Under the pieces are notes generated by a model. The model saw only the letters and a list, made by a program, of their open reading frames with translations. It was not told the origin of the DNA and ran no database searches. This document shows positions 9,580-55,321 of a stretch of 64,000 nt of DNA, piece after piece. This DNA is from a virus. Lineage: Duplodnaviria; Heunggongvirae; Uroviricota; Caudoviricetes. A program made the translations under genes and the position numbers. The stretch is from IMG/VR virus record IMGVR_UViG_2706794662_000007; one strand, 5' to 3'. Each line of letters opens with the position of its first letter. The first letter of the stretch is position 1.

Positions 9580-9843
9580 NNNNNNNNNNNNNNNNNNNNN
9601 NNNNNNNNNNNNNNNNNNNNNNNNNNNNNNNNNNNNNNNNNNNNNNNNNNNNNNNNNNNNNNNNNNNNNNNNNNNNNNNNNNNNNNNNNNNNNNNNNNNN
9701 NNNNNNNNNNNNNNNNNNNNNNNNNNNNNNNNNNNNNNNNNNNNNNNNNNNNNNNNNNNNNNNNNNNNNNNNNNNNNNNNNNNNNNNNNNNNNNNNNNNN
9801 NNNNNNNNNNNNNNNNNNNNNNNNNNNNNNNNNNNNNNNNNNN
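9580..9843. other. N-run (masked or unresolved sequence)
   Basis: 264 consecutive n. Confidence 1.
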
Positions 9844-15095: not shown

Positions 15096-17034
15096 TTACT
15101 TAACCTGGTGGCCAGGTTTAGCACCAGCATCCGGGCTTAACAGGAAGATATCTTTCCCGCCAGGACCGGCAGCCATCACCATGCCTTCAGAGATACCGAA
15201 GCGCATTTTACGTGGTGCCAGGTTAGCCACCATAATGGTGTGACGACCAATCAGTGCCTGTGGATCTGGATAAGCGGAACGGATGCCTGAGAAGACATTA
15301 CGCTTTTCACCACCGAGATCCAGCGTCAGGCGAAGCAGTTTGTCAGAACCTTCGACAAACTCCGCGTTTTCAATCAGCGCCACACGCAGGTCAACTTTGG
15401 CGAAGTCGTCAAAGGTGATGGTTTCCTGAATCGGTTCGTCAGCCAGTGGGCCAGTTACCGGTGCAGCTGTGGCTTTCACTTCTTCTTTGGATGCTTCCAC
15501 CAGTGCTTCCACCTGTTTCATATCGATACGGTTATACAGTGCCTTGAACGGATTCACTTTATGGCCCAGAAGCGGTTGCTGGATACCATCCCAGGTCAGT
15601 TCTGTATTCAGGAATGCTTCTGCACGTTCAGTCAGTTTCGGCAGTACCGGTTTCAGGTACGTCATCAGCACGCGGAACAGGTTAATGCCCATAGAGCAAA
15701 TCGCCTGCAGATCTGCATCGCGACCTTCCTGCTTCGCCACCACCCACGGAGCCTGTTCATCGACATAGCGATTAGCCAGGTCAGCCAATGCCATGATTTC
15801 ACGGATAGCTTTACCAAATTCGCGGCTTTCCCATGCTTCGCCAATCACTTCAGCGGCATCAGTAAAGGTTTTGTACAGTTGCGGGTCAGCCAGTTCGCTT
15901 GTCAGCACGCCGTCAAAACGCTTGTTGATAAAGCCTGCATTACGGGAGGCCAGGTTAACCACTTTGTTCACGATATCGGCATTCACGCGCTGAACGAAAT
16001 CTTCCAGGTTGAGATCGATATCATCAATGCGCGAAGAGAGTTTCGCAGTGTAGTAGTAACGCAGGCTGTCAGCGTCAAAATGATTCAGCCAGGTGCTGGC
16101 TTTAATAAAGGTGCCGCGAGACTTGGACATCTTCGCGCCGTTCACCGTCACATAGCCGTGAACAAACAGGTTGGTCGGCTTGCGGAAGTTGCTGCCTTCC
16201 AGCATGGCAGGCCAGAACAGACTGTGGAAGTAAACGATATCTTTGCCGATGAAGTGGTACAGCTCGGCGGTGGAGTCTTTCTTCCAGTATTCGTCGAAGC
16301 TTACGCTGTCGCCGCGCTTGTCGCACAGATTCTTGAAAGAACCCATGTAGCCAATCGGCGCGTCCAGCCAGACGTAGAAATATTTGCCCGGCGCGTTCGN
16401 NNNNNNNNNNNNNNNNNNNNNNNNNNNNNNNNNNNNNNNNNNNNNNNNNNNNNNNNNNNNNNNNNNNNNNNNNNNNNNNNNNNNNNNNNNNNNNNNNNNN
16501 NNNNNNNNNNNNNNNNNNNNNNNNNNNNNNNNNNNNNNNNNNNNNNNNNNNNNNNNNNNNNNNNNNNNNNNNNNNNNNNNNNNNNNNNNNNNNNNNNNNN
16601 NNNNNNNNNNNNNNNNNNNNNNNNNNNNNNNNNNNNNNNNNNNNNNNNNNNNNNNNNNNNNNNNNNNNNNNNNNNNNNNNNNNNNNNNNNNNNNNNNNNN
16701 NNNNNNNNNNNNNNNNNNNNNNNNNNNNCTCTTCGCTGTGCGTCGAGTGATAGTTGTCATAGCTGATGTTAAAGCCTGCGAAATCAGTCTGATGTTCCTG
16801 ACTCATTTCGCCAATCATCTGTTCCGGTGTGATACCAAGCTGCTGTGCTTTCAGCATGATTGGCGTACCGTGGGCATCGTCGGCACAGATGAAATTAACC
16901 TCGTGGCCGCGCATTCGCTGGTAACGAACCCAGACATCAGCCTGGATGTGCTCCAGCATATGGCCGAGGTGGATTGAGCCGTTAGCGTACGGCAGCGCGC
17001 ACGTCACCAGAATTTTCTTCGCGACTTGGGTCAT
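15096..17034 (-). CDS. metG: methionyl-tRNA synthetase (interrupted by N-run 16400-16728)
   Basis: Start [29 protein letters not shown] (HIGH-type motif) and C-terminus ...[24 protein letters not shown] match E. coli MetG as I recall it; the two flanking ORF fragments are in different frames because of the N-run. Confidence 0.95.
16400..16728. other. N-run inside metG
   Basis: 329 n. Confidence 1.
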
Positions 17035-17191
17035 AGTAGGCATTACTTCTTTGTAGTGAAAAGGGGCTTGATAGTAACAAAATGGCCTTATGTCTGCCAT
17101 GTGATAACAGCATTTCTCATAAATGATTAAATGTCGTAGCTGGAGTACACTACAAGGCGACAATTGCGCAAATTAAAATAAAGGAGACGGG

Positions 17192-18292
17192 ATGAGCGAG
17201 TCCAAATCGCCGGATGCCCTGAGAGCAATGGTAGCCGGTACGCTGGCTAATTTTCAGCACCCAACCCTGAAACACAACTTGACTACGCTTAAAGCGTTAC
17301 ACCATGTTGCGTTGATGGATGACACACTGCATGTCGAACTAATCATGCCTTTCGTGTGGAATAAGCCTTTTGAAGACCTGAAAGAGCAATGTAGTGGTGA
17401 TCTGCTCCGTATCACTGGCGCAAAGGCTATTGACTGGAAGCTGTCGTACAACATTGCCACGCTTAAGCGCGTCAAAAACCAACCAGGCATTAATGGCGTT
17501 AAGAACATTATCGCCGTCAGCTCAGGCAAGGGCGGCGTGGGTAAATCCTCCACAGCAGTAAACTTGGCACTGGCTTTGGCTGCTGAAGGTGCGAAAGTTG
17601 GTATTTTGGATGCCGATATCTATGGTCCATCAATTCCAACCATGCTGGGCGCGGAAAACCAACGTCCAACCTCACCGGACGGTACTCACATGGCACCTAT
17701 CATGTCTCATGGCCTGGCAACCAACTCTATTGGTTATCTGGTCACCGATGACAATGCAATGGTGTGGCGTGGACCGATGGCGAGCAAGGCGCTGATGCAG
17801 ATGTTGCAGGAAACACTGTGGCCTGATCTGGACTATCTCGTTCTCGATATGCCACCGGGCACTGGTGATATTCAATTGACGCTGGCGCAGAACATTCCTG
17901 TAACTGGTGCGGTTGTGGTAACTACGCCGCAAGACATCGCGCTGATCGATGCGAAGAAAGGCATTGTGATGTTCGAAAAAGTCGAAGTGCCGGTACTGGG
18001 TATCGTTGAAAACATGAGTGTGCATATTTGCAGTAACTGCGGTCATCACGAGCCAATTTTTGGCACCGGTGGAGCACAGAAACTGGCCGAGAAATACAAC
18101 ACGCAGTTGTTAGGCCAAATGCCACTTCATATCTCTCTTCGTGAAGATCTGGATAACGGAACACCAACCGTTATTAGTCGTCCAGATAGCGAATTTACGG
18201 CTATTTATCGTGACCTCGCAGATCGCGTTGCTGCCCAAATGTATTGGCAAGGTGAAGTAATACCTGGCGAAATCGCATTCCGCGCAGTGTGA
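17192..18292 (+). CDS. apbC: Mrp/ApbC Fe-S cluster carrier ATPase
   Basis: 366 aa; deviant Walker A AVSSGKGGVGKSST and CxxC (CSNCGH); divergent from metG as in the E. coli chromosome. Confidence 0.95.
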   Translation: MSESKSPDALRAMVAGTLANFQHPTLKHNLTTLKALHHVALMDDTLHVELIMPFVWNKPFEDLKEQCSGDLLRITGAKAIDWKLSYNIATLKRVKNQPGINGVKNIIAVSSGKGGVGKSSTAVNLALALAAEGAKVGILDADIYGPSIPTMLGAENQRPTSPDGTHMAPIMSHGLATNSIGYLVTDDNAMVWRGPMASKALMQMLQETLWPDLDYLVLDMPPGTGDIQLTLAQNIPVTGAVVVTTPQDIALIDAKKGIVMFEKVEVPVLGIVENMSVHICSNCGHHEPIFGTGGAQKLAEKYNTQLLGQMPLHISLREDLDNGTPTVISRPDSEFTAIYRDLADRVAAQMYWQGEVIPGEIAFRAV

Positions 18293-18294
18293 TA

Positions 18295-18319
18295 AAAAGG
18301 CGGTGCATTGCACCGCCTA
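18295..18319 (-). terminator. hairpin terminator (T-run on minus strand)
   Basis: ggcggtgcaatgcaccgcc followed by ttttt on minus strand, between apbC stop and UmuD'-like stop. Confidence 0.5.
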
Positions 18320-18329
18320 ATCAGTTCTC

Positions 18330-18719
18330 CTACATCACAGGACAATCATCAAACTCGCCACTTCTTGCGTCGTTGATAATGTGAGTGATCACACCAAACA
18401 CGGCATTGCTGCCCGTGCATCCATCGTCATCCTTTGGCAATGCTTCCTTCTTACCGGTTCTTAAATCCTCCAGATGCTGACGTGGAGACTTCCGGTATCT
18501 TTTTACGCGATATTCCCCATCCAGAGCGCATACAAGCAGAGAACCATCAACCGGGGTAAGTGAGGAATCAACCACCAGCAATGCACCCTGTAATATTCCC
18601 TCACGATGATGACTATCAGCTGCTCTCATGAAGTAGGTCGCTGAAGGATGTCTAATTATCTGCTGATCAAGAGAAATACGGCTCTCAGCATAATCCGCCG
18701 CAGGAGAAGGGAAGCCCAT
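18330..18719 (-). CDS. UmuD'-like S24 peptidase family protein
   Basis: GFPSPAADYAE...HPSATYF...DS...VKRYRK...VFGVITHIIN aligns with the UmuD C-terminal domain and lacks the N-terminal arm, like processed UmuD'; motif A upstream at 18839-18856. Confidence 0.7.
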   Translation of the reverse strand: MGFPSPAADYAESRISLDQQIIRHPSATYFMRAADSHHREGILQGALLVVDSSLTPVDGSLLVCALDGEYRVKRYRKSPRQHLEDLRTGKKEALPKDDDGCTGSNAVFGVITHIINDARSGEFDDCPVM

Positions 18720-18904
18720 AGCGTTTTGCCCTCAATACTGTTCATTTACACAGTATACATGAAAGAAGCTCACTCAGTGCAACTGATCGGTACATAGCAC
18801 CAGACAAAGGAACGTTATTTTCTCGAACAAGAAAAGGTAGAAAACAAATTGTTTAAGGCCACAACTAGTGGCCTTAATGGAGAAGGGATGCTTATTGGCT
18901 ATGG

Positions 18905-19423
18905 CTAAAAATCAAANNNNNNNNNNNNNNNNNNNNNNNNNNNNNNNNNNNNNNNNNNNNNNNNNNNNNNNNNNNNNNNNNNNNNNNNNNNNNNNNNNNN
19001 NNNNNNNNNNNNNNNNNNNNNNNNNNNNNNNNNNNNNNNNNNNNNNNNNNNNNNNNNNNNNNNNNNNNNNNNNNNNNNNNNNNNNNNNNNNNNNNNNNNN
19101 NNNNNNNNNNNNNNNNNNNNNNNNNNNNNNNNNNNNNNNNNNNNNNNNNNNNNNNNNNNNNNNNNNNNNTTTAAAGGAAGATAGGTTCCCCATAGTAGCT
19201 GTCTGCCGTGCGCTCGTGTGAAATACCGGGCCATCTTCGGATTGCTATGCTGCTTAGGAGCGCCTGGTCTGTATGTCTGATACCCGGCCAACATCCCATC
19301 AAACCTGTATAGAGGGAATGTAACAACTCCTTCGCTTTCATCGATCCACTGTCTATATGGATGCACATCATAGCGGTAGTTACGAGTTAGCAAATGAGCT
19401 TCCAGCTTTCCAAATTTAGTCAT
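18905..19423 (-). CDS. hypothetical protein (interrupted by N-run)
   Basis: Start set to MTKFGKLEAH with GAGGGA ribosome-binding site; C-terminal part and frame uncertain. Confidence 0.35.
   Translation of the reverse strand: MTKFGKLEAHLLTRNYRYDVHPYRQWIDESEGVVTFPLYRFDGMLAGYQTYRPGAPKQHSNPKMARYFTRAHGRQLLWGTYLPLXXXXXXXXXXXXXXXXXXXXXXXXXXXXXXXXXXXXXXXXXXXXXXXXXXXXXXXXXXXXXXXXXXXXXXXXXXXXXXXXXXXXXFDF
18917..19169. other. N-run
   Basis: 253 n. Confidence 1.
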
Positions 19424-19436
19424 AACTTCGCATCCC

Positions 19437-20291
19437 TCATAACACTTCCCATTTATCACCATATTTCTCCATAGCTCTTAGCCAATAAACATGGCCACTA
19501 GGCATAGTGATGTGAGGCTCGCCAAACTCTTCTCCATGTACATCAAAGATGTCCCCAACAGAAAATTGGGGGATTTCTGTTCCGTTTTCACCTATATGTG
19601 TAATTCGTATACGTTTCGGTTGGGATTGTCCACCTTTGAGCGAGTTGTTCACTGCTCTGGCAATTTTCTCCCGCAATTGCTGCGTTCCGTGATACGTAAC
19701 CGCAATATCCCGCAACTCATTCACTAGTTCTCGAATTTGGTGATCTTTAAGCTCATTATTTGGGTGATTGGTAACAACTCTGGTTAATTCCCCATTGTCT
19801 TTTGCTCTTACGTATGCAGCTCTTGTGCATTCGCCCCATGTATTACCGCCTACATTAACTTCGTAGATTAGGCTGGACTTATCTGTCAATTCGGAACAAA
19901 TACGGGCCGTGGTCTGGCAACTAGAGCATTCGCAGTTATCGCGGAAACCGTGGTCTACTGGCTTCGGTTTAACATCATCAACTTTTTCTACCCTATTGGA
20001 ATTTAAATACTTCGAAGCCTTGCTATGCCAATCGCTGGTTTTAGGATCTTGTCCATCCATCAAACGCCAGGCTTCAGCTATTAACTCATAACTAGTGACT
20101 GTAGCTTCCTGCGCATCACCAATAAGTCGTGTAATCTCTCTTTCAAGCCGACCGCCTAACTCCGTTTTAGTGCAATGTTCTGACCAATCGCCAGTCTCAA
20201 GAAGCGCGAGAATGCTTAAAATATCGTCCAATAGAACGGTAGTATTATCGACTTCCTTCTGAAACTCACCGGCTACTGATTTATGCATCAT
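19437..20291 (-). CDS. hypothetical protein
   Basis: 284 aa ORF. Confidence 0.5.
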   Translation of the reverse strand: MMHKSVAGEFQKEVDNTTVLLDDILSILALLETGDWSEHCTKTELGGRLEREITRLIGDAQEATVTSYELIAEAWRLMDGQDPKTSDWHSKASKYLNSNRVEKVDDVKPKPVDHGFRDNCECSSCQTTARICSELTDKSSLIYEVNVGGNTWGECTRAAYVRAKDNGELTRVVTNHPNNELKDHQIRELVNELRDIAVTYHGTQQLREKIARAVNNSLKGGQSQPKRIRITHIGENGTEIPQFSVGDIFDVHGEEFGEPHITMPSGHVYWLRAMEKYGDKWEVL

Positions 20292-20569
20292 TCGTCATCC
20301 TCATCCGAGTCATCCTCATCACAGGATGAGAGTAGTGGGTTAGTCATTCGCCCTACTTGAGTGGCGTAGCAACGCCGACAGAGATTGCGCAGCACACTGT
20401 ATATTTCGAACATCTCGGTTCGTTCATCGCCAACATCAAGCTCAGATGCTATAGCGTGGCATTCAGTCGCGAGAGCCGATATTTTCTGAAATAACTCTGC
20501 TTTATTCACTCTTCGACTCCTGCGGAGGTTCTGGTAGCGGCATCCAGTGAGTTGCTTGCTCAATACCAT
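20288..20569 (-). CDS. hypothetical protein
   Basis: 93 aa ORF; overlaps neighbour 5' region, low certainty. Confidence 0.3.
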   Translation of the reverse strand: MVLSKQLTGCRYQNLRRSRRVNKAELFQKISALATECHAIASELDVGDERTEMFEIYSVLRNLCRRCYATQVGRMTNPLLSSCDEDDSDEDDE

Positions 20570-21077
20570 TACCCGGCTTAATCGTTACATCTCCGCGCCG
20601 AAAGGTGATTCCGGTATAGCGTGCGGAGCATATTAGCGGTTCAACCAGAGAGCTATCGAAATTCACCGAAATAAGCACGTTCTGGCCCTTTTCAGGCATT
20701 CGCTCACTACAGCTTATCCAACCATCCGGAGTTACCGGATGGGGTCCAGCGAACTCGGGAATGTCAGGACCTTTTCTGATAGCTTTAGCCAGATCCAGCG
20801 GGTCATCGTAAAGCCAGTCGCCAGTTTGTGGGTGATTTGCTTCTGCAAGCTGCGCAGCCCATTCAAGACCATCTTTTTGACCTTGGAGATAATCAAGCGG
20901 CAACTCTTCATGATTACTTGCAGGTTCTGCACTATCAGCTTCGCGCCGCTTCTGTAGCTCTGCTGCCATCGCTCTCACGACTTCAACTGGTGCCCTTGCA
21001 GCAAACTCTATGTTGGTGATCAGCTCATTAAGATATTGCTCGCCTGGATACTGTTTCTTATCGGTTATAGTGGTCAT
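20502..21077 (-). CDS. DUF551-like phage protein
   Basis: Start MTTITDKK; C-terminal ...GITFRRGDVTIKPGNG...THWMPLPEPP resembles the DUF551 signature. Confidence 0.5.
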   Translation of the reverse strand: MTTITDKKQYPGEQYLNELITNIEFAARAPVEVVRAMAAELQKRREADSAEPASNHEELPLDYLQGQKDGLEWAAQLAEANHPQTGDWLYDDPLDLAKAIRKGPDIPEFAGPHPVTPDGWISCSERMPEKGQNVLISVNFDSSLVEPLICSARYTGITFRRGDVTIKPGNGIEQATHWMPLPEPPQESKSE

Positions 21078-21078
21078 A

Positions 21079-21465
21079 TCACTCTCCTTTTCCCTGAAGC
21101 ATAGCAGCGCGGCAGGCATTCCAGCCTCTCACCTCTGCAATAGCGGCAACAGCATCAACCGCGTACATGCTAAGAGGATTAGGCATTGGTTTTTCTTCCG
21201 GTACTACTGGAACGGGTGGAGCGGCGTAGACCTCAATAATTCCATTATCAATAGGCCATTCTCCATCCTTGAGGTAGTCACTTGTGCCGTCAACTTGCTG
21301 TTCTGCAATGTGGAATGCACCTATTGGTTTTGCTTCCAGCGATGCCAGAGCAATTCGTGCCAGTTCTTCCGCTTCTTCTGCTGGCAGTACAACGTTGCTA
21401 CCAGGTCCGTATGTTTCGCGCCACTGTTTGATTGTCAGTAGTCGCTCTTTGGTAATAGTGGTCAT
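21079..21465 (-). CDS. hypothetical protein
   Basis: 128 aa ORF starting MTTITKERLL with AAGGAG ribosome-binding site. Confidence 0.5.
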   Translation of the reverse strand: MTTITKERLLTIKQWRETYGPGSNVVLPAEEAEELARIALASLEAKPIGAFHIAEQQVDGTSDYLKDGEWPIDNGIIEVYAAPPVPVVPEEKPMPNPLSMYAVDAVAAIAEVRGWNACRAAMLQGKGE

Positions 21466-21475
21466 GTGTTACTCC

Positions 21476-21748
21476 TTAACCCGCAGTGCNNNNNNNNNNN
21501 NNNNNNNNNNNNNNNNNNNNNNNNNNNNNNNNNNNNNNNNNNNNNNNNNNNNNNNNNNNNNNNNNNNNNNNNNNNNNNNNNNNNNNNNNNNNNNNNNNNN
21601 NNNNNNNNNNNNNNNNNNNNNNNNNNNNNNNNNNNNNNNNNNNNNNNNNNNNNNNNNNNNNNNNNNNNNNNNNNNNNNNNNNNNNNNNNNNNNNNNNNNN
21701 NNNNNNNNNNNNNNNNNNNNNNNNNNNNNNNNNNNNNNNAGTTGCCAT
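21476..21748 (-). CDS. hypothetical protein (mostly masked by N-run)
   Basis: ATG at 21748 preceded by conserved junction GGAGAGTGATATG; body is n. Confidence 0.3.
   Translation of the reverse strand: MATXXXXXXXXXXXXXXXXXXXXXXXXXXXXXXXXXXXXXXXXXXXXXXXXXXXXXXXXXXXXXXXXXXXXXXXXXXXXXXXXXXXXTAG
21490..21739. other. N-run
   Basis: 250 n. Confidence 1.
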
Positions 21749-21749
21749 A

Positions 21750-22271
21750 TCACTCTCCTTTGATGCGAATGCCTGCTGCAATGCTGTTTATGATGCTGTC
21801 AGTGCATGGAGTAGAAAGCTGGGCATCTCCAGCAATTTTCATGACCTCAACATCCGCATATCGAATACCGAGGTGTATCAGACCGGCTATACCTGACTTA
21901 AGTCGAACATTTTCCATAAACAGATCTTTTTCCCGCTGTTTAGCGGCTTCCAACTCCATCGACAATTTTTCCAACTGCTCTTTATGCTTCTTGTATTCCT
22001 GATACGCGTGCCAAGACTGACCTTTGCGCACACTATCAGTGATATCAGCAACCTGCTCCGGTGTTAGCGTGGTCAGTGGCTGTGCTGGAAAAATCATCAC
22101 TTTCCCGGCATCCCAATCAAAACCCGCCTGAATTGACTGAACCTCAACTGATGGTGTTGAACCGATGCGACCAGGCGAATGAACAACGATCGTTACATCC
22201 ATATCGCGACGATGGCTGTGGTTGTTGGACAAAATACGATTCACCAACTCAGAAAATTTGGAAAATTTCAT
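21750..22271 (-). CDS. hypothetical protein
   Basis: Start [10 protein letters not shown]; C-terminus ...AAGIRIKGE encoded by the repeated junction sequence. Confidence 0.5.
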
Positions 22272-22591
22272 GCTGATCCCTCTTTCTCTCCCCGGATAAT
22301 TCTGTTGCACACATCCACACACTCGTCGCAGATGAAAACGGCGTCCCCAGCAATTAACTTTTTGACGGCGTACTGGGATTTGTTGCAGAAGCTGCAACAA
22401 AGTGTTCGCCTGACTGATAAGGATGGAGCGCCAGATGTCAGCCGCTCCATATCGTTCTTGCGACGCAATATCACACGGCTGAACTCAACCAGTTTCTCCG
22501 GGGATATCTCCTCCTCCGTAGCAAGCGCCTCTAATCGTTCGAGTATGTGGAAGGCTTTTTTCTGGGTAATTGCAGAATGCGATGTGGTCAT
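22268..22591 (-). CDS. ClpX zinc-binding-domain-like protein
   Basis: C-terminal [34 protein letters not shown] closely resembles the ClpX N-terminal C4 zinc finger. Confidence 0.55.
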
Positions 22592-22592
22592 C

Positions 22593-23123
22593 TCACTCTC
22601 CTTTGATGCGAATGCCAGCGGCGCGGGAATCATTCCATCGCTTTACTTCTTCACGAATTACGTCAATGCATTCTTTCGAATCCATTAGGTAATCTTCATC
22701 AAAAAGACGTTCCTGTTCGTTTTCTATCGCAACAATGATTGCTTCAACTAACTTTTGTGCCTGAGAATCACTTTCTAACTCTGCTATGCGCTTACTTCCA
22801 TCCGAGATAACGCCCTCGTAATACTCACGCTGCTCGTTGAGTTTTGATTTTGCCAACTCCAGTTGTTTTGTTAGTTCCGCAATACGGCAAACATCGTTGA
22901 TACGCGTTTCCTCTAATGCGTTGATCTCATCCAGTAGTGCCAGCACGGTTTCTGGTCCGGCCAGAAATTTGAAGGCGTTGAGGGCATCAATATCAACACC
23001 GCTATCTTTAAGTTCCTGTTCACTTAACAAGTCATCATCAGCTGGCAACATTAACAGGCGTTCCATTGCTGGAATTGCACGTTCCGCCACCTCACGCAGT
23101 GCCTGGTAATTAATTTCGCTCAC
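22593..23123 (-). CDS. hypothetical protein
   Basis: 176 aa ORF ending ...AAGIRIKGE. Confidence 0.5.
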
Positions 23124-23364
23124 TGGCTGCCTCCTGCTTTTCTGCCTTCAACACCATGCGAGAACCATCATCCAGCTCCCACACTATCTCACCACCTTCA
23201 GCCATGACCAGTTGCCACACCAATTGAGCAGCCTCATTGGTAACATCACGACCTGGATCATTGCCAACGCGCATACGTCCACCTTCAACATCGCGCATTT
23301 TTGCCAGCATGATAGTTTTTGATAGCGGTGAAAAACCAAGCTGTAGTCGTGCTGAATTACTCAC
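23110..23364 (-). CDS. hypothetical protein
   Basis: 84 aa ORF. Confidence 0.4.
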   Translation of the reverse strand: MSNSARLQLGFSPLSKTIMLAKMRDVEGGRMRVGNDPGRDVTNEAAQLVWQLVMAEGGEIVWELDDGSRMVLKAEKQEAASERN

Positions 23365-23903
23365 TGGTTGCCTCCTTTGCGAAGCTGGGCAGCAAAGTCA
23401 ACTAACCACTCAGTCATTTCAACCTTCCCTACCAGGTCTGAACCAGGGTGCATACAGCAATCACTCTGCGCCGCTTTGAAATCCTTATACTCATATTCTT
23501 GGGCCACCAGATTTTTTGCAGCTTCTATAGCAGCATCCACCCCCTGCGCACGTACTTCAGCCAGAAAAGCATCGGTGGCTGGAGTCTCCGTTAATTCGCT
23601 AACCCAATTATCTCCGTGTTCCTCGGCACACATCGCATCGAATGCTCGCTCAGATTCTTTCAGGGCTGCATTCTCCGCCGCTAATGCGTCTCTCTGCGCC
23701 CGCAACTTCTCAATTTCGGCAGCCATGTAGTAACCAACCATAGCGAAGACGGCAAAAGAGTTGTCTGCCTCATCAGGCGACACTGAGGCCATTAGCAGAC
23801 CATCGTAATAATCGTGACTCCCATTGGTGATCGCCACCTCATAGGAGTCGTGGTTCTCACGCTTGTGAATGAGAACTACGGGGTTTTCGATTTTGTTACT
23901 CAT
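23361..23903 (-). CDS. hypothetical protein
   Basis: 180 aa ORF; conserved start context aaaaacacATG. Confidence 0.5.
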   Translation of the reverse strand: MSNKIENPVVLIHKRENHDSYEVAITNGSHDYYDGLLMASVSPDEADNSFAVFAMVGYYMAAEIEKLRAQRDALAAENAALKESERAFDAMCAEEHGDNWVSELTETPATDAFLAEVRAQGVDAAIEAAKNLVAQEYEYKDFKAAQSDCCMHPGSDLVGKVEMTEWLVDFAAQLRKGGNQ

Positions 23904-24041
23904 GTGTTTTTCTCTTCTTTGCTGTTACATAAGCACTACCAAGTGCTGGTTTATTTTCACAAATAAGAAAATGTAGAAAACAATTTATTTAAGGCCACAA
24001 CTTATGGCCTTTATTTATTCATGCCGAAGGATTTGTAGCGT

Positions 24042-24422
24042 CTAATTGCCGTATAAAATGGGGTGAGGTGCTTGCCAGTAGGCTCCACCGGTCCATGTGA
24101 ACCCCATGCGAATAAGAGTGTTTATTGCGGCTTTGGTAGACTCCGATTCGACACTGGCTTTACGAAACTCTTGAACCTCTTTCGCCAACCTGTATGTAAT
24201 TGTGCAGGGGACGATTGCAGCCCAGCCTTTCTCATGACTGTTAATGACCATCTGGATGTGACCATCCAGAATAGGTTGATTAGACATGTTATTGAAAATG
24301 TCTGCCTGTTTTTGAATGTGAAGAAAAAGCCTTGCCAGCTCCATTTGCTCACTACGAGACAAGGGATTATCAAGAGGGCTTTTTGCAAAAGCGGCTATAC
24401 GCTGTGCGTCAATGCCAAACAT
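24042..24422 (-). CDS. hypothetical protein
   Basis: 126 aa ORF. Confidence 0.45.
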   Translation of the reverse strand: MFGIDAQRIAAFAKSPLDNPLSRSEQMELARLFLHIQKQADIFNNMSNQPILDGHIQMVINSHEKGWAAIVPCTITYRLAKEVQEFRKASVESESTKAAINTLIRMGFTWTGGAYWQAPHPILYGN

Positions 24423-25126
24423 CAGCGCACCTCACCATCTTTATGGCTGGAGTTAACTTCCGCCATTAAATGTCTGACGTAATCGACAAGAGAGCCACCT
24501 GGTGGAATCTGGCATTCCTCAACTAACTGGAAGTAGATATCCGCAGCATTACGTGTATTGCTACCCGCGCATATTCTTTCTTCCCGAAGTGCATGAAGCT
24601 CGTTGATCAAACGGTCACACTCTCCGTTACGCTGATCCACAACAGCCTCAAGTTCTGCGACGCGTTCACCTGGCGTCTTACCTTCTTCGCGTTGGATGGT
24701 AACGACGAAATCGCCAATTGCAGGGACGTTGTAATCCAGCTCAAGGTAGTTTTTGGCACCGCTGCGGACGAACTCACCCGCGAACATGGTGGCGAACATC
24801 TCAGAGGCCATTGTGCTGTTGAAAAGTGACTCCAGATCTAACGGAGTCCCGGCAGCCAGAGCCTCTTTTGCTGTATCCATTGTATCCATGAACCGATCAA
24901 ACTCATTAGCGCGCTTTTCCAGGTCTTTCCATTGCTCGCTCCAACGTTTGGCAATGAAGTCTATGAATGTTTTCGCGGATTCATCAAAATCCCCCTCAAA
25001 CTTAACGATGCCTTTATCAATAATGATCTGGCCTACCGCATCCTCTGCATAACCTTTCAATGTAAACTTGAAAGGAAAATCAGAATGGCCTGTGACGTTA
25101 AAATGCTCTAACTGGAGGTTGTTCAT
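24422..25126 (-). CDS. hypothetical protein
   Basis: 234 aa ORF; motif B upstream at 25170-25190. Confidence 0.5.
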   Translation of the reverse strand: MNNLQLEHFNVTGHSDFPFKFTLKGYAEDAVGQIIIDKGIVKFEGDFDESAKTFIDFIAKRWSEQWKDLEKRANEFDRFMDTMDTAKEALAAGTPLDLESLFNSTMASEMFATMFAGEFVRSGAKNYLELDYNVPAIGDFVVTIQREEGKTPGERVAELEAVVDQRNGECDRLINELHALREERICAGSNTRNAADIYFQLVEECQIPPGGSLVDYVRHLMAEVNSSHKDGEVR

Positions 25127-25187
25127 ATGTTTTTCTCTTATCGTTTAGTTATTACATTCTTACACAAATTAAGTAAGTATTTACCTA

Positions 25188-26892
25188 TCATTTAACGCGT
25201 TTGAAAACGTATACGCTGACTGTGATCCCTGTGTCTTCAAACTCGTTGGTAAACGACTTCCCTCTGGCATAAACGTAATTATCCATCGTCATCCAGTCCA
25301 GTATTGGCGCNNNNNNNNNNNNNNNNNNNNNNNNNNNNNNNNNNNNNNNNNNNNNNNNNNNNNNNNNNNNNNNNNNNNNNNNNNNNNNNNNNNNNNNNNN
25401 NNNNNNNNNNNNNNNNNNNNNNNNNNNNNNNNNNNNNNNNNNNNNNNNNNNNNNNNNNNNNNNNNNNNNNNNNNNNNNNNNNNNNNNNNNNNNNNNNNNN
25501 NNNNNNNNNNNNNNNNNNNNNNNNNNNNNNNNNNNNNNNNNNNNNNNNNNNNNNNNNNNNNNNNNCCAGATCGGCGTTAATATAGGCCAGAAGATCCCCA
25601 CGTCCGGCTTGAGGCTCCAACAGCTTCTCACCAGGCTTCAATTCAGTGGCTCTGGCAACGTACTCAGCAATCAAGCGTGGGGTAGGGTAGAACTGGTGTG
25701 ATTTTGTATCCGGTATTAAACCGGTAGCCACAATCGTATTTAGCGTATGGCCGATCTCATACGGGAACTGCCAGTGCTTTTTCTCCTGCACGCCGCCAAT
25801 GAAGCTCAGTGTGCGCTCAAGCTCTTCCACCTGCGACTTCTGGAGAGCTGAATCAGAGAAGTACCATACGCCTTTGTCTTTGCTCAATCGCCCGTCACGA
25901 AGCGCAGTGCGAACCGGCACGGAGATCGTCTTCTGGATTAACCCGAACTGCTTTGGTGCCCGTGTTTTTGGCGCAGTTCGGCATGGCGCGGGGATTGCAG
26001 CAGGCATACTGTAAGCCAGCACCTCATTCAACTTCCAGGCCACGTCAGGATGTATTTCAAAGTGAACGTTGCCGTTCTTGAACATCTTCACGCGCATCAG
26101 ATTTCCATCGACGTTCATCCAGTCACCGGTCTGGCAGTCGTTTGCCCGATACGCAGCTGATAGCACCTCAGCAGTGCGGTTGATGGTAATAAATTCTTTG
26201 TGCGCGAAGAAATGAAGCAAGACACGCAGATCGTCGATGTAGTCCTCTTTGCGATAGTTCACGCTAACGCTGTCACGCCAGAAATCAGAAATGCAGTCAG
26301 CGATTATCAGACGCTCGCTGAAACCGTTTGTCTTATTTGTCTTGTGCGCAGGACTCAGCGCCTTAAACAAGCCATACACGCGCTCAGAGAGATATTTGTG
26401 CCTGTCATTCAGCAAATTAAGCATCGTTGGTATGACCGTTTCTGCTTTGAACTCCGGTACACCAACGAACTCTTTAACCTTCATCTGATAGCCGGTTCTG
26501 TCAGTTTTGATGACTTCCTGCTTGCCCTCGATAAATAGCTCACGCCACTCGTCGCGACGGGAAGCTGGCATGATCAGCAGAACGTTAGTCATATCCGTAA
26601 CCTTCCTCCAGTACTCGGCCCAAATATTCTGTTTCACCCATTCCAGATCGACGTTATCCAGCCAGACTCGATTCAAACGTGAGCGATCTTCATCTGGTCG
26701 GTGGTTTAGTCGAAGCAGGCGATTAATCATGTTGTGGCGTTCATCGCCATAAACGAAGTCGTGTACCTGATACATGAAGGAGATCTCTTTCTCGCACTCG
26801 GCCACAATTTCGTGGATGACGTTCATTTCCTGTCGATAGTCGATAGCAGTGTTTGAGCTGGCATCGCCCATGATGGAAAGGGCTGTATTCAT
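25188..26892 (-). CDS. putative N6-adenine DNA methyltransferase with large N-terminal extension (C-terminal part masked)
   Basis: FYPTPRLIAEYV followed by EPQAGRGDLLAYI (motif X then motif I, gamma-class order) just before the N-run; the catalytic (D/N)PPY region would lie in the masked part. Confidence 0.45.
25311..25565. other. N-run
   Basis: 255 n. Confidence 1.
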
Positions 26893-26995
26893 AATTGCAC
26901 CATTAAGAAATGATTTGTTTAATGATGCAATTATTTCAAAAATAAAAAGGTGCTAAATAGAAATTAACAGGCAATACTTAAAATAAAGGCATTGA

Positions 26996-27670
26996 CTAAT
27001 CATACTTGGATGTATTTATAACCAGGACTTTATTTGTATATAGTTTTTTTACATTCCATGTAACATTACTTGAATACCATTCACCATTATATATTTGGTT
27101 TCCCGTTGCGCCTGTCATTGTTACGTATACAGGTCTGTCGTAAGGTGTTCGTCTATAGTTATATACTCCAACCATTGCAGGCATTATCGCACACGGGTAT
27201 CCCATATTTATGGTAAATTGAGGATTTGTAATAGTGATAATCTCTGCATCAAGGGGCATCATCTCACCGTGATATACCATTTTACCTGCGCTATTATACA
27301 TGGCAATACCATATCCTGAATGTGGTAACACCATATCAGAAAAAGCATAAACTGTTATCGTTCCGGGGTTTCCTCCAACCTGATTCAGTCTGAGAACATT
27401 ATACCCATCTCTAAATTCATGAACGAACATCATATTCGCCTTATTACTGCTTTTTATAAAGAAAAAACATGATTTGTTCGACGGTATTGAAGTCTTAAAA
27501 ACAGAACCTTTAGACGTGGACATTGTCCCCCTATTAATCAAATTTTGCGGTGTAAATTCTGGACTCATCCACACATTACCATTTGACTGAGTAATTGACA
27601 TCCCGAACATTATTGTTATCCCCAATATGTATATATATAAGATCCAAGTCCCTTGTATAAATTTGACCAA
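26996..27670 (-). CDS. membrane-anchored or exported protein (hypothetical)
   Basis: N-terminal hydrophobic segment WILYIYILGITIMFGM; AT-rich region. Confidence 0.45.
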   Translation of the reverse strand: MVKFIQGTWILYIYILGITIMFGMSITQSNGNVWMSPEFTPQNLINRGTMSTSKGSVFKTSIPSNKSCFFFIKSSNKANMMFVHEFRDGYNVLRLNQVGGNPGTITVYAFSDMVLPHSGYGIAMYNSAGKMVYHGEMMPLDAEIITITNPQFTINMGYPCAIMPAMVGVYNYRRTPYDRPVYVTMTGATGNQIYNGEWYSSNVTWNVKKLYTNKVLVINTSKYD

Positions 27671-43272: not shown

Positions 43273-45195
43273 AGCTGCGCCCCTCTTTAACTTCCAGCGT
43301 AATAGTTTCCCGGAACCATGACTTCATCTCTTTATGGGAGATAATCAGCACAGTACCTCGCTCGCGAGCTTTGGACTCCAGAATACCCATGAGGCGTTCA
43401 AGACCGGCTGTATCGAGTGCATCGTCAATTTCGTCGCCGATAAACAAATCGATGTTTTTACTCGCCCGGTTACTAACCAGATCCTGCAATGCCAAAGAAC
43501 ACGCAATGCGAACCTTCCGCTTCTCACCACCAGAGAGGGTCTGGAACGACTTACTTGAACCTTTCTTCTGCACACTAATGTTGAATTTGTCGCGATACTC
43601 ACCTTTTTTGGTGACATCCATCGTCGACCACTCAGCAGTAATATTCCCGTCAGACAACGTATTGAGATACTCGGCAGTGCGTGTATTCAGGAAAGGCGTA
43701 ACAGACGTCAAAATATGAGAACGCACCCCGGCAGGAGAGTAGACCTGACGAGCTTTTTCCAATAGCAACGTTTGTTCCTGAATAGCCTTCAACTCATCTT
43801 TTAAGGACTTGAAGGTAGACTTACTGGATACCAGGTTATCTTCGTGTCTGGCGATAAGAGCAATAAACGGATTAATCTCTTTTGATATACGATCGACCTC
43901 AGTACGAGCACGAGTCACAAGAGACTCAATAGCAACAATCTCCTTCTCACGATGACGCAAAGATGAGAGTTGTTTCGTAAGCTCTTCAATCCGGGCAATG
44001 ATAGCCGTTACATCAGGTGTCGTTTTAACAAGGGCAGACTCAATGCTTAACGCTTTCTCAAGATTCGTTTTGTGTTTAGCCATTGCCTCTGCAAGTGTCT
44101 TCGCCTGACCAATTTCCTGACGTGCTTGTTCAATGAAATTCTCCTTCACCGTTGATAGATCTTCTTCGCAGTAGGCTTTGCCACAAGTAGGGCATGGTGA
44201 TCCCACTTTAGTACCAACCTCTTCTGCTTTGGTCTTAAAATTACGCGCGCGGTTCATTGCATCAGCCTGACTATTTTCTGTAGCTTTGATGCTTGCCCGA
44301 ATATCAGTTATCGCACCACGAACNNNNNNNNNNNNNNNNNNNNNNNNNNNNNNNNNNNNNNNNNNNNNNNNNNNNNNNNNNNNNNNNNNNNNNNNNNNNN
44401 NNNNNNNNNNNNNNNNNNNNNNNNNNNNNNNNNNNNNNNNNNNNNNNNNNNNNNNNNNNNNNNNNNNNNNNNNNNNNNNNNNNNNNNNNNNNNNNNNNNN
44501 NNNNNNNNNNNNNNNNNNNNNNNNNNNNNNNNNNNNNNNNNNNNNNNNNNNNNNNNNNNNNNNNNNNNNNNNNNNNNNNNNNNNNNGATTGTCGACTCCA
44601 ATTTGGTTTTAACCACATCCATACGTGCGGCAGCTGCATTAGCTCGCTCACGAGCAATAGCGTAGGCGCGTGTCAGTCTGTCAACGCCAGCGGCTTCTTC
44701 TACGATGGTTTTGAGGTTTTTGTCGGACATTCCAGGTAAATCTGGCATAGCTTCTTGGCTCGCATAGATGGAAGCCATGAAAACCTCTTTAGATGCACCG
44801 ATCAGACGCTCGACGAACTCTTGCGTCAGCGCATCTTTGCCTTTCGTCATATCGCCGTCTTCACCACGAACGATAAGCCGATTTTTGAACTCTTTGTGTT
44901 TACGGTGACGAATGATCGCATATCTCTTGCCTTCATCCTCGATGGTTACTGCAACACGACAGTTCTTTTCATGGTCGGTAGACAACACATCGTCACCCTT
45001 CACACCATGAGCTGTTTCGCCATAAAGACACCACATCAGGCTATTCATTAGCGTTGACTTTCCAGAGCCATTACTTGATGCGGAACTATCATCACTATTA
45101 ACACCCTGAATGAGCACTAAACCACGCTGATCTAACTCGACCTCCGCGCTGGCGATAGCCATAAAATTCTCAACCTGGAGCTTTAAAAACTTCAT
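43262..45195 (-). CDS. SbcC/Rad50-like ATPase (gp46-like), interrupted by N-run 44324-44586
   Basis: N-terminal Walker A GSNGSGKST; C-terminal signature LSGGEKRK and Walker B LFIGDEID; coiled-coil middle. Confidence 0.8.
44324..44586. other. N-run
   Basis: 263 n. Confidence 1.
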
Positions 45196-54230: not shown

Positions 54231-55321
54231 TTACTCTTCTACTGACTCGGTGGGGTTGTCTTTTGCTCTTCGGTCGTCGATTGCCTGCAAAGCCGCAATG
54301 ATTTCAGCCAGTGGCTTCTCCCGATACATCTCGACGATCTGCGATTTGGTGTATTTCTTGTCACCAATTTCAACTCGCCCGCTGGCGTTCTTTGGCAGGT
54401 ATCCTTCTTCCAGCATGTACTCGACGAGCGATTCGATAACGTCGAGGCCACGAGTAGGATCGAAGTAGAATTTCCAGGTGCATTTGCCATACGGTGGTGC
54501 AACTTTGTTTTTGATGCATTCTGCGCCTACGTCCTGGCCGATCTTCTCTTTACCATCCTTCATCACCGATGCACCAAGACGGATACGTACAGAAGCGTAG
54601 AACTTCGGTGAATCTCCACCTGGAGACGTAGTAGGGTCGCCAAACATTACACCGATTTTTGTGCGAACCTGATTCAAGAAGATGATGCAGGCGTTGTATT
54701 TGCGTGCCCACAAAGCCAGAGTAGGGAAGTTCGCACTTGTCGCACGAGCCAGTGCCGTATTGTCGTTCATGTTTAGCTGATCTTTGTCTTTGGCAGTGCC
54801 TTCAGCCATCTTTTCGAACTTCTCGGCTTTGGAGTTCGGAACCATAGACGCAAGTGAGTCAGCCACGATACAGATAGGTGCTGATTCAGGAATAAGCTCT
54901 TCATCACGTACCAATTTAAGAATTGTGCCGATCAACTCTACAGAGTCTTCGAAGGTATCAGGCTGCTTGTATACCCACTGACCGTCATCCTCATCTGCAT
55001 TCAAACCATTGGCTACAGCCAGGCCAACGTCAAAACTGTTCTCATGATCGAGGANNNNNNNNNNNNNNNNNNNNNNNNNNNNNNNNNNNNNNNNNNNNNN
55101 NNNNNNNNNNNNNNNNNNNNNNNNNNNNNNNNNNNNNNNNNNNNNNNNNNNNNNNNNNNNNNNNNNNNNNNNNNNNNNNNNNNNNNNNNNNNNNNNNNNN
55201 NNNNNNNNNNNNNNNNNNNNNNNNNNNNNNNNNNNNNNNNNNNNNNNNNNNNNNNNNNNNNNNNNNNNNNNNNNNNNNNNNNNNNNNNNNNNNNNNNNNN
55301 NNNNNNNNNNNNTTTTGCCAT
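54231..55321 (-). CDS. RecA-family recombinase (UvsX/RecA-like), interrupted by N-run 55055-55312
   Basis: C-terminal part ...IIFLNQVRTKIGVMFGDPTTSPGGDSPKFYASVRIRLG matches the RecA core (loop L2 region); N-terminal ATG at 55321; Walker motifs presumably masked. Confidence 0.8.
55055..55312. other. N-run
   Basis: 258 n. Confidence 1.

Follow-up and report, generated by a model that had tools for sequence, protein, structure and literature searches.

The origin of phage mosaicism has been debated for decades, between homologous recombination at short linkers and random illegitimate joining followed by selection. This question is raised by a run of small genes in a viral DNA of 64,000 nucleotides (nt) (IMG/VR record IMGVR_UViG_2706794662_000007, Caudoviricetes; the whole stretch is called the window below), in which one short sequence recurs at the boundaries between unrelated genes. 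What is this junction, and are the genes on its two sides exchanged through it? The window is a p09EL50/SSU5-like Escherichia coli phage-plasmid with a lambda-type "ea" accessory-gene operon, and the region tested was 99.9-100% identical to the 109-kb E. coli phage-plasmids p09EL50 (NC_018651.1) and "phage CMS-2020a" (CP054387.1). Our results indicated that the repeat is probably a conserved boundary, or "linker", of the ea arrays of temperate enterobacterial phages, where homologous recombination swaps neighbouring genes. That the crossovers fall within the junction by homology, and which enzymes take part, we infer from comparison.

Anatomy of the junction sequence

Every gene of the array lies on the minus strand, and the motif appears on the plus strand of the window as its reverse complement. 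The 28-mer GGCATTCGCATCAAAGGAGAGTGAKATG has exactly two exact copies in the window, junction 2 at 21746-21773 and junction 3 at 22589-22616, both on the minus strand, and it had no match in 100 dinucleotide shuffles of the window (0 expected). Its 24-mer core, GGCATTCGCATCAAAGGAGAGTGA, is followed by (T/G)ATG and is read in the frame GGC ATT CGC ATC AAA GGA GAG TGA, which encodes G-I-R-I-K-G-E and a stop. The Shine-Dalgarno sequence AAGGAG lies inside the 24-mer at a distance of 6 nt from the next ATG, and a single nt separates this ATG from the stop (TGA-N-ATG). Junction 3 holds the last seven codons and TGA of an Ea22-like gene, AAGGAG, and the ATG of a gene for a ClpX-type zinc-finger protein. 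Junction 2 holds the last seven codons and TGA of a gene for a protein of 173 amino acids (aa), the Shine-Dalgarno sequence, and the ATG of a small gene of 87-90 aa that is largely masked by a run of N. Since the upstream gene contains the Shine-Dalgarno sequence within its last codons and its stop is a few nt from the next start, both sites have the form expected of translationally coupled junctions.

A preliminary description of the window had claimed three copies of this sequence, a C-terminal peptide AAGIRIKGE shared by two upstream proteins, and a ribosome-binding site and start for the next gene within the same letters. The last two points were borne out: the 24-mer reads GIRIKGE-stop, BLASTP aligned the last 9 residues of the two proteins, and AAGGAG and the start are placed as given above. 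The downstream starts MTTIT, MAT and MTTSH were also recovered, as MTTITDKKQ in the DUF551 protein, MATLTKKERA in the p09EL50 copy of the masked gene and MTTSHS in the zinc-finger protein. As for the copies, two are exact, the strand had to be corrected to minus, and the third is diverged. This junction 1 (21075-21090, minus strand) retains only the 16-mer AAAGGAGAGTGATATG in common with the others (3 matches in the window versus 0.01 expected), and it comprises the end of a 128-aa gene (...RAAMLQGKGE and stop) with the Shine-Dalgarno sequence and ATG of the DUF551 gene. The protein upstream ends in ...CRAAMLQGKGE (EVRGWNACRAAMLQGKGE), not in AAGIRIKGE. Its tail was identical to that of the Ea22-like protein, upstream of junction 3, at 10 of 18 residues, and the DNA of the two regions was 70% identical over 70 nt (repeat family D3), with homology reaching to about 21139; the junction 1 tail is a diverged homologue of the Ea22-like tail segment. 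The repeat search also aligned the three junction copies in the same register, 671 and 843 nt apart (repeat family D1). As at lambdoid-type boundaries, a short conserved sequence thus spans the stop, ribosome-binding site and start at three gene boundaries. When the exact junction 1 form, GGGAAAAGGAGAGTGA, was considered as a second widespread junction, it had 0 instances in 137 IMG/VR loci.

Gene partners and exchange products at the junction

An exact scan of IMG/VR for the 24-mer gave at least 120 loci, which together with the window and its annotated relatives made 128 instances. IMG/VR instances were gathered by exact or synonymous match, and non-synonymous variants such as junction 1 lie outside this sample. 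The flanks of 122 usable instances among the matches listed were clustered over 294 nt per side at 80% identity, and fell into 25 upstream and 24 downstream clusters in 67 distinct pairings, as compared with 25 pairings under complete linkage and about 91 under random assortment. In this set, the commonest upstream gene had 9 downstream partners and the commonest downstream gene had 11 upstream partners. The junction followed at least 12 unrelated upstream gene families, and across contexts the DNA identity fell abruptly at both edges of the 24-mer; alternative, non-homologous flanks were found on both sides of it in different genomes.

The junction is also abundant outside this sample. With the 31-mer, 6,703 matching sites were counted across 3,068 of the 5,426 complete E. 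coli genomes (median 2, maximum 11 per genome), on chromosomes and on plasmids, with 415 of the sites on plasmids. The same 31-mer was present in 386 phage records, which included Stx phages, HK620 (between hkaG and hkaF), P22-like Salmonella phages, and the P1-like phages P7, SJ46 and RCS47. The junction is therefore present in lambdoid, P22-like and P1/P7-like phages as well as in SSU5-like phage-plasmids. The ea22 gene of phage lambda itself ends with the identical 24-mer (...HMMSDA followed by GIRIKGE), with no start codon after it. Among GTDB representative genomes, 33 of the 38 exact 24-mer matches (loci L144-L181) were this end of lambda ea22, on short or low-coverage contigs, some of about 48.5 kb, in unrelated taxa such as Streptomyces, Bacillus, Shewanella, Prevotella and Bradyrhizobium; they are lambda DNA contamination of the assemblies concerned. 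A taxonomic range drawn from species-representative genomes was dropped as uninformative for this reason.

Gene gain or loss exactly at the junctions of relatives, proposed as a check in the preliminary description, was found in sister phage-plasmids, in an insertion-deletion difference of 843 base pairs (bp) and in the 67 pairings above. Four phage-plasmids (window/p09EL50, PhiR41_1, CP053388 and Cyrano) had backbones 96-99% identical and four different arrays, with homology breakpoints at 21758/21768 in junction 2, 22591 in junction 3 and 21077 in junction 1. Collinearity between PhiR41_1 and the window extended from 25300 to 21768, within junction 2, and the two differed beyond this point. 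In CP053388, exactly the stretch between junctions 2 and 3 (21758-22591) was retained, with other neighbours on its sides. Cyrano kept only 21758-21941 and 20948-21077 of the array. The block from junction 2 to junction 3 was also carried in other surroundings, at 98-99% identity, by the loci L003, L010, L058 and L102.

In the IMG/VR locus L122, the tail of the Ea22-like gene was joined straight to a homologue of the 87-aa gene through a single copy of the junction. Its two alignments to p09EL50 overlapped by exactly the 28-nt junction, with L122 1970-1997 corresponding to both L001 8291-8318 and L001 7448-7475. The window has two copies and, between them, the 843-bp pair of the zinc-finger and 173-aa genes; since a single junction copy in L122 stands in place of these two, the two-gene block is bounded by the repeats. 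The layout of L122 is what would be expected if the direct repeats had recombined by homology, or if the block had been inserted through them. As a control, the boundary within the cassette, an ATGA overlap that shares no junction sequence, was the only tightly linked boundary of the array (4 of 4 instances). Exchange products with ends coinciding with the junction were thus observed in both the 843-bp difference and the sister breakpoints, and 30 of 268 homology end points fell within 45 nt of junction 2.

The codons of the junction were more uniform than its peptide requires. In a scan for GIRIKGE-stop in any codons, 122 of 136 instances were the identical 24-mer and the other 14 differed by one base; the heptapeptide alone would not impose such codon identity, though the sample is biased towards one phage pool. 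In 7 loci the upstream gene is read in another frame and stops about 30 nt earlier, and the 24-mer is non-coding and serves only the downstream gene. Because of these loci and of the lambda copy with no start codon after it, each local function of the junction is dispensable somewhere, yet the DNA sequence is retained.

A second phage pool in IMG/VR (loci L130, L134, L137 and L187-L214), with a G+C content of 52.6% compared with 47.2% in the first, carried a uniform GGCATCAGCATCAAGGGGGAGTAG(GGATATGGCT) encoding GISIKGE, which connected 8 or more upstream tails with 9 or more downstream starts. In L182, L208 and L210 there was a third variant, GGCATCAAGATTAAGGGGGARTGA (GIKIKGE). Three protein families have members in both pools, and the junction variant tracked the pool and not the family every time. 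Concerted evolution of this kind would be expected if the junction were continually exchanged within a recombining population. The 37-mer of the GISIKGE pool had no match in the phage collection, and the 1.6-kb flank of this pool gave only matches of 70-82%, to methyltransferase genes of Klebsiella and Salmonella phages.

Between instances in different contexts, the exact match extended over 28 nt in the median and over 35 nt at the 90th percentile. For efficient pairing, De Paepe et al. (2014, PMC3945230) give a minimal segment of 23-27 bp with Red-beta and of 31-34 bp with RecA. By these values, the junction has just the length that phage annealases need and is of borderline length for RecA.

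Proposed recombination at the junction and alternative explanations

In the mechanism that we propose, the 24-mer closes the upstream frame with GIRIKGE and a stop, supplies AAGGAG, and sets the next start; because this start lies 1 nt after the stop, ribosomes could pass from gene to gene. Since the same stretch of 24-31 nt separates many unrelated gene pairs of co-resident prophages and phage-plasmids, the junction would offer a short patch of perfect homology, and recombination at this patch would replace the gene on either side and leave the frame, stop, ribosome-binding site and start intact. The most plausible enzymes would be phage annealases of the Red-beta/RecT type, or otherwise RecA. 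The two direct copies 843 bp apart bracket the cassette of the zinc-finger and 173-aa genes, which could be gained or lost through them, and the abundance of the junction in E. coli genomes would provide the opportunity for exchange. Rad52-like phage recombinases are known to form mosaics between temperate phages and prophages by relaxed homologous recombination on short or diverged homology (PMC3945230). The minimal pairing segment of Red-beta fits the junction length, whereas the homologies used in that study were hundreds of bases long.

Several observations weigh against this mechanism. The support for crossovers at the junction is comparative throughout, and the phage-plasmid encodes RecA and a 5'-3' exonuclease, with no annotated annealase of the Rad52 type. 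Clusters of homology end points also occurred at other boundaries and inside genes (21930-21959, 22770-22799 and 22920-22934), and linkage was low (0-25%) across most other boundaries of the array too. The uniformity of the junction is overestimated, because the instances were gathered by exact or synonymous match, and a comparison of nucleotide diversity between the junction and its flanks was set aside as biased by this way of sampling. Furthermore, Gly, Ile, Ile, Lys, Gly and Glu differed among the three variants by synonymous changes only and residue 3 alone varied (R/S/K), so that selection on the peptide or on the ribosome-binding site is also likely. Such selection could maintain the junction without a role in recombination, and neither explanation excludes the other. 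The array as a whole is hyper-mosaic, and since there is a second recurrent boundary sequence and end points fall at other places, the junction is the most prominent of several joints and not a unique hotspot. The earlier suggestion of a modular cassette boundary that promotes shuffling holds for a boundary with variable partners and a repeat-bounded cassette, while "promotes" is a reading of comparative signatures.

Could functional constraint alone account for the junction? On this explanation, it is a good unit of stop, Shine-Dalgarno sequence and start with a needed heptapeptide, genes are joined by illegitimate recombination at random sites followed by selection (the Hendrix model), and the junction is a passenger and not the cause. 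We consider this possible but rather unlikely. The Shine-Dalgarno spacing and the stop-start layout are near ideal, as it would predict, and the synonymous differences among GIRIKGE, GISIKGE and GIKIKGE at six of seven residues agree with it, but identical codons in 122 of 136 instances, from at least 12 unrelated families, are not what selection on a seven-residue peptide and a 6-nt ribosome-binding site would predict. Breakpoints do cluster at boundaries and domain edges that have no junction sequence, and most phage mosaic joints are without conserved boundary sequences (PMC3233612); however, neither the pool-specific variants common to orthologues of different families nor an insertion-deletion difference with ends exactly at two repeat copies would be expected from constraint. 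Each function is dispensable in some loci, as described above, and since junction 1 has lost GIRI while it retains KGE-stop-ATG, the peptide is not strictly required. A further and improbable explanation is that the heptapeptide G-I-(R/S/K)-I-K-G-E might be a portable C-terminal tag, as a docking or turnover motif, with the junction as an adaptor that both shuffles genes and tags their products. A candidate partner of the tag could be a zinc-binding domain of the ClpX type, like that encoded right after junction 3. The restriction to synonymous changes outside residue 3 is compatible with this explanation, as is the movement of the zinc-finger gene and the tail-bearing 173-aa gene as a tight unit.

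Two further alternatives concern the origin of the array. Tandem duplication, by which the genes ending in the junction would be local paralogues and the repeat their common 3' end, might be suggested by three copies in one operon at 671- and 843-nt spacing and by the similar 18-residue tails of the 128-aa and Ea22-like proteins. It is hardly credible, since BLASTP of the 173-aa protein versus the Ea22-like protein aligned only their last 9 residues, only the Ea22-like protein of this pair matched Ead_Ea22, the DNA identity ended abruptly at the edge of the 24-mer, and the same junction occurs elsewhere after more than 12 unrelated protein tails. An array of tandem paralogues was accordingly rejected. 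It is also very unlikely that a site-specific cassette system, with a dedicated integron-like recombinase or a homing endonuclease such as an HNH enzyme, targets the junction. The array does resemble integron attC arrays in its small, mostly promoterless genes, its repeated element at each boundary and its content, which varies between relatives. In addition, HNH endonuclease genes are found in related arrays and a tyrosine recombinase is encoded elsewhere on the plasmid. However, this recombinase, the only one of its type on the plasmid, lies about 40 kb from the array and resembles the element's own integrase or resolvase; neither IntI nor attI was found beside the array, and the array of the window contains no HNH gene. 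The repeat is translated, and at the three junctions there was no attC-like imperfect palindrome or hairpin (fold z-scores -1.9, +0.7 and -0.1, with no common structure) and no structured single strand or Rfam match. The same junction is found in lambdoid, P22-like, P1-like and SSU5-like genomes that have no such enzyme in common. Exchange at the junction appears to be driven by homology, unlike exchange in integrons.

An RNA element was rejected as well, since no Rfam family was found in 18000-27000 and the three junction regions had no common or significant fold. No internal promoters or terminators were found at the junctions, and promoter-like sites were fewer than in shuffles.

Homologous recombination at a linker, the explanation that we prefer, has a long history. 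The idea goes back to the modular theory of Susskind and Botstein (1978) and was supported for HK620 by Clark et al. (2001), as these are cited in PMC3233612 and PMC3029335, where the linker model is set against illegitimate recombination and selection. Like the lambdoid linkers, the present junction is a short conserved boundary between alternative non-homologous genes and a proposed site of homologous recombination, and it is itself found in HK620. It differs from them in that it is coding (the upstream 3' end with the next ribosome-binding site), occurs several times per operon, and is found here in a phage-plasmid and not in a lambdoid phage, with pool-specific concerted evolution. The coupled stop-start junctions of phages (ATGA, TGAnATG) share with it the 1-nt stop-start gap and a Shine-Dalgarno sequence in the last codons of the upstream gene, although ordinary ones are not identical over 24-31 nt between unrelated gene pairs. 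We found no paper with GIRIKGE or the DNA string of the junction; the boundary list of Clark et al. (2001) lay outside this search, and an earlier listing of the junction there is possible. The GenBank record of HK620 has no boundary sequences annotated. Because the linker concept is old, the novelty of the junction is modest, and a specialist would not be surprised by it. It is an unusually clean and abundant example, present in over half of the complete E. coli genomes and linking dozens of accessory genes. It makes the linker model directly testable and marks a route for accessory genes between prophages and phage-plasmids.

Array genes, other joints and neighbouring features

The small minus-strand genes of the array are flanked by a DUF4942 methyltransferase-like gene on one side and a toprim gene on the other, and they are ea accessory genes typical of the early-left operon in lambdoid and P22-like phages. 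In order of transcription, they encode a 180-aa protein, a DUF7446 protein, the Ea22-like protein, the 107-aa protein with the ClpX-type zinc finger, the 173-aa, 87-90-aa and 128-aa proteins, the DUF551 protein, and proteins of 73 and 284 aa. Boundaries next to the junctions have ATGA or GTGA overlaps.

The Ea22-like gene (22593-23123, minus strand) encodes 176 aa from a GTG start (157 aa in a shorter form given by PGAP), and residues 2-117 of the protein matched the Pfam family Ead_Ea22 (PF13935) with 85.3 bits against a cut-off of 27, while the 173-aa and 128-aa upstream proteins had no match. It thus resembles lambda Ea22 of the ea22/exo-xis region in both its family and its terminal 24-mer, and differs from it in its C-terminal part, which is unrelated to that of lambda, and in the start codon that follows the junction. 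Ea22 genes are mosaic, with unrelated C-terminal domains (PMC10834534); the same paper makes no mention of a common terminal heptapeptide or of the junction.

The first gene of the 843-bp cassette (22268-22591, minus strand) encodes the 107-aa protein, whose C-terminal 40 residues, with a C4 zinc finger, are closely homologous to the zinc-binding domain at the N terminus of ClpX (zf-C4_ClpX in Pfam, E 1e-15; PDB 2DS5 and 1OVX, E 1e-14). Since it has no AAA+ part, the protein may be a mimic or titrator of the adaptor-docking domain of ClpX. Its gene is the constant companion of the downstream 173-aa gene (21750-22271, minus strand), the second of the cassette, which overlaps it by ATGA and whose product has no Pfam family. 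The small gene 3' of junction 2 (21476-21748, minus strand) is mostly covered by the N run at 21490-21739, and its start, MATLTKKERA..., was read from the 99.9% identical plasmid p09EL50, where the gene encodes 87 aa and 241 nt correspond to the 250 N of the window. Seven N runs of 250-329 nt each were found in the window (9580-9843, 16400-16728, 18917-19169, 21490-21739, 25311-25565, 44324-44586 and 55055-55312). The 128-aa gene (21079-21465, minus strand; MTTITKERLL...) ends in junction 1, and downstream of junction 1 lies the DUF551 gene (20502-21077, minus strand), which encodes 191 aa.

In addition to the junction, a second recurrent boundary sequence, GGAGGCARCCAGTGAG, was found at 23119-23134 and 23360-23375, with 60 instances in IMG/VR loci in 29 upstream and 22 downstream contexts. 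At 23360-23375 (minus strand) it has the form GGAGGCAACCAGTGAG, where the upstream gene ends in ...RKGGNQ with a stop that overlaps the start codon, GTG, of the DUF7446 gene. A variant copy, GGAGGCAGCCAGTGAG, lies at the GTG start of the Ea22-like gene (23119-23134, minus strand). The proteins that start after it are MSEINYQ... (Ea22-like) and MSNSARLQ... (DUF7446). With the second boundary at its start and junction 3 at its end, the Ea22-like gene is bracketed by two different linker sequences. Within the DUF551 gene, a highly conserved core of 35 nt, CACTACAGCTTATCCAACCATCCGGAGTTACCGGA, lies at the start of the domain (20705-20740, minus strand). IMG/VR loci contain about 80 occurrences of this core, in which the sequence varies to either side of it; it is an intragenic mosaic joint at a domain boundary.

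A direct repeat of 64 nt, 86% identical, was found at 18815-18878 and 23951-24014, in the intergenic regions on either side of the variable ea-gene array. Read on the minus strand, it has a GC-rich hairpin (AAGGCCAC...GTGGCCTT) and then a stretch rich in T, and the pair is probably a terminator or regulatory module that delimits the operon. Beyond the array, the element encodes RepB, ParB, terminase, portal, capsid and tail proteins, together with DnaE, NrdAB, ThyA, the trimethoprim-resistant DfrA51, its own RecA and the 5'-3' exonuclease (genes dnaE, nrdAB, thyA and recA among them). The phage-plasmid also carries a divergent pair of metG and apbC/mrp (about 15096-18292), a layout that is the same as on the E. 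coli chromosome and that suggests capture of a host locus.

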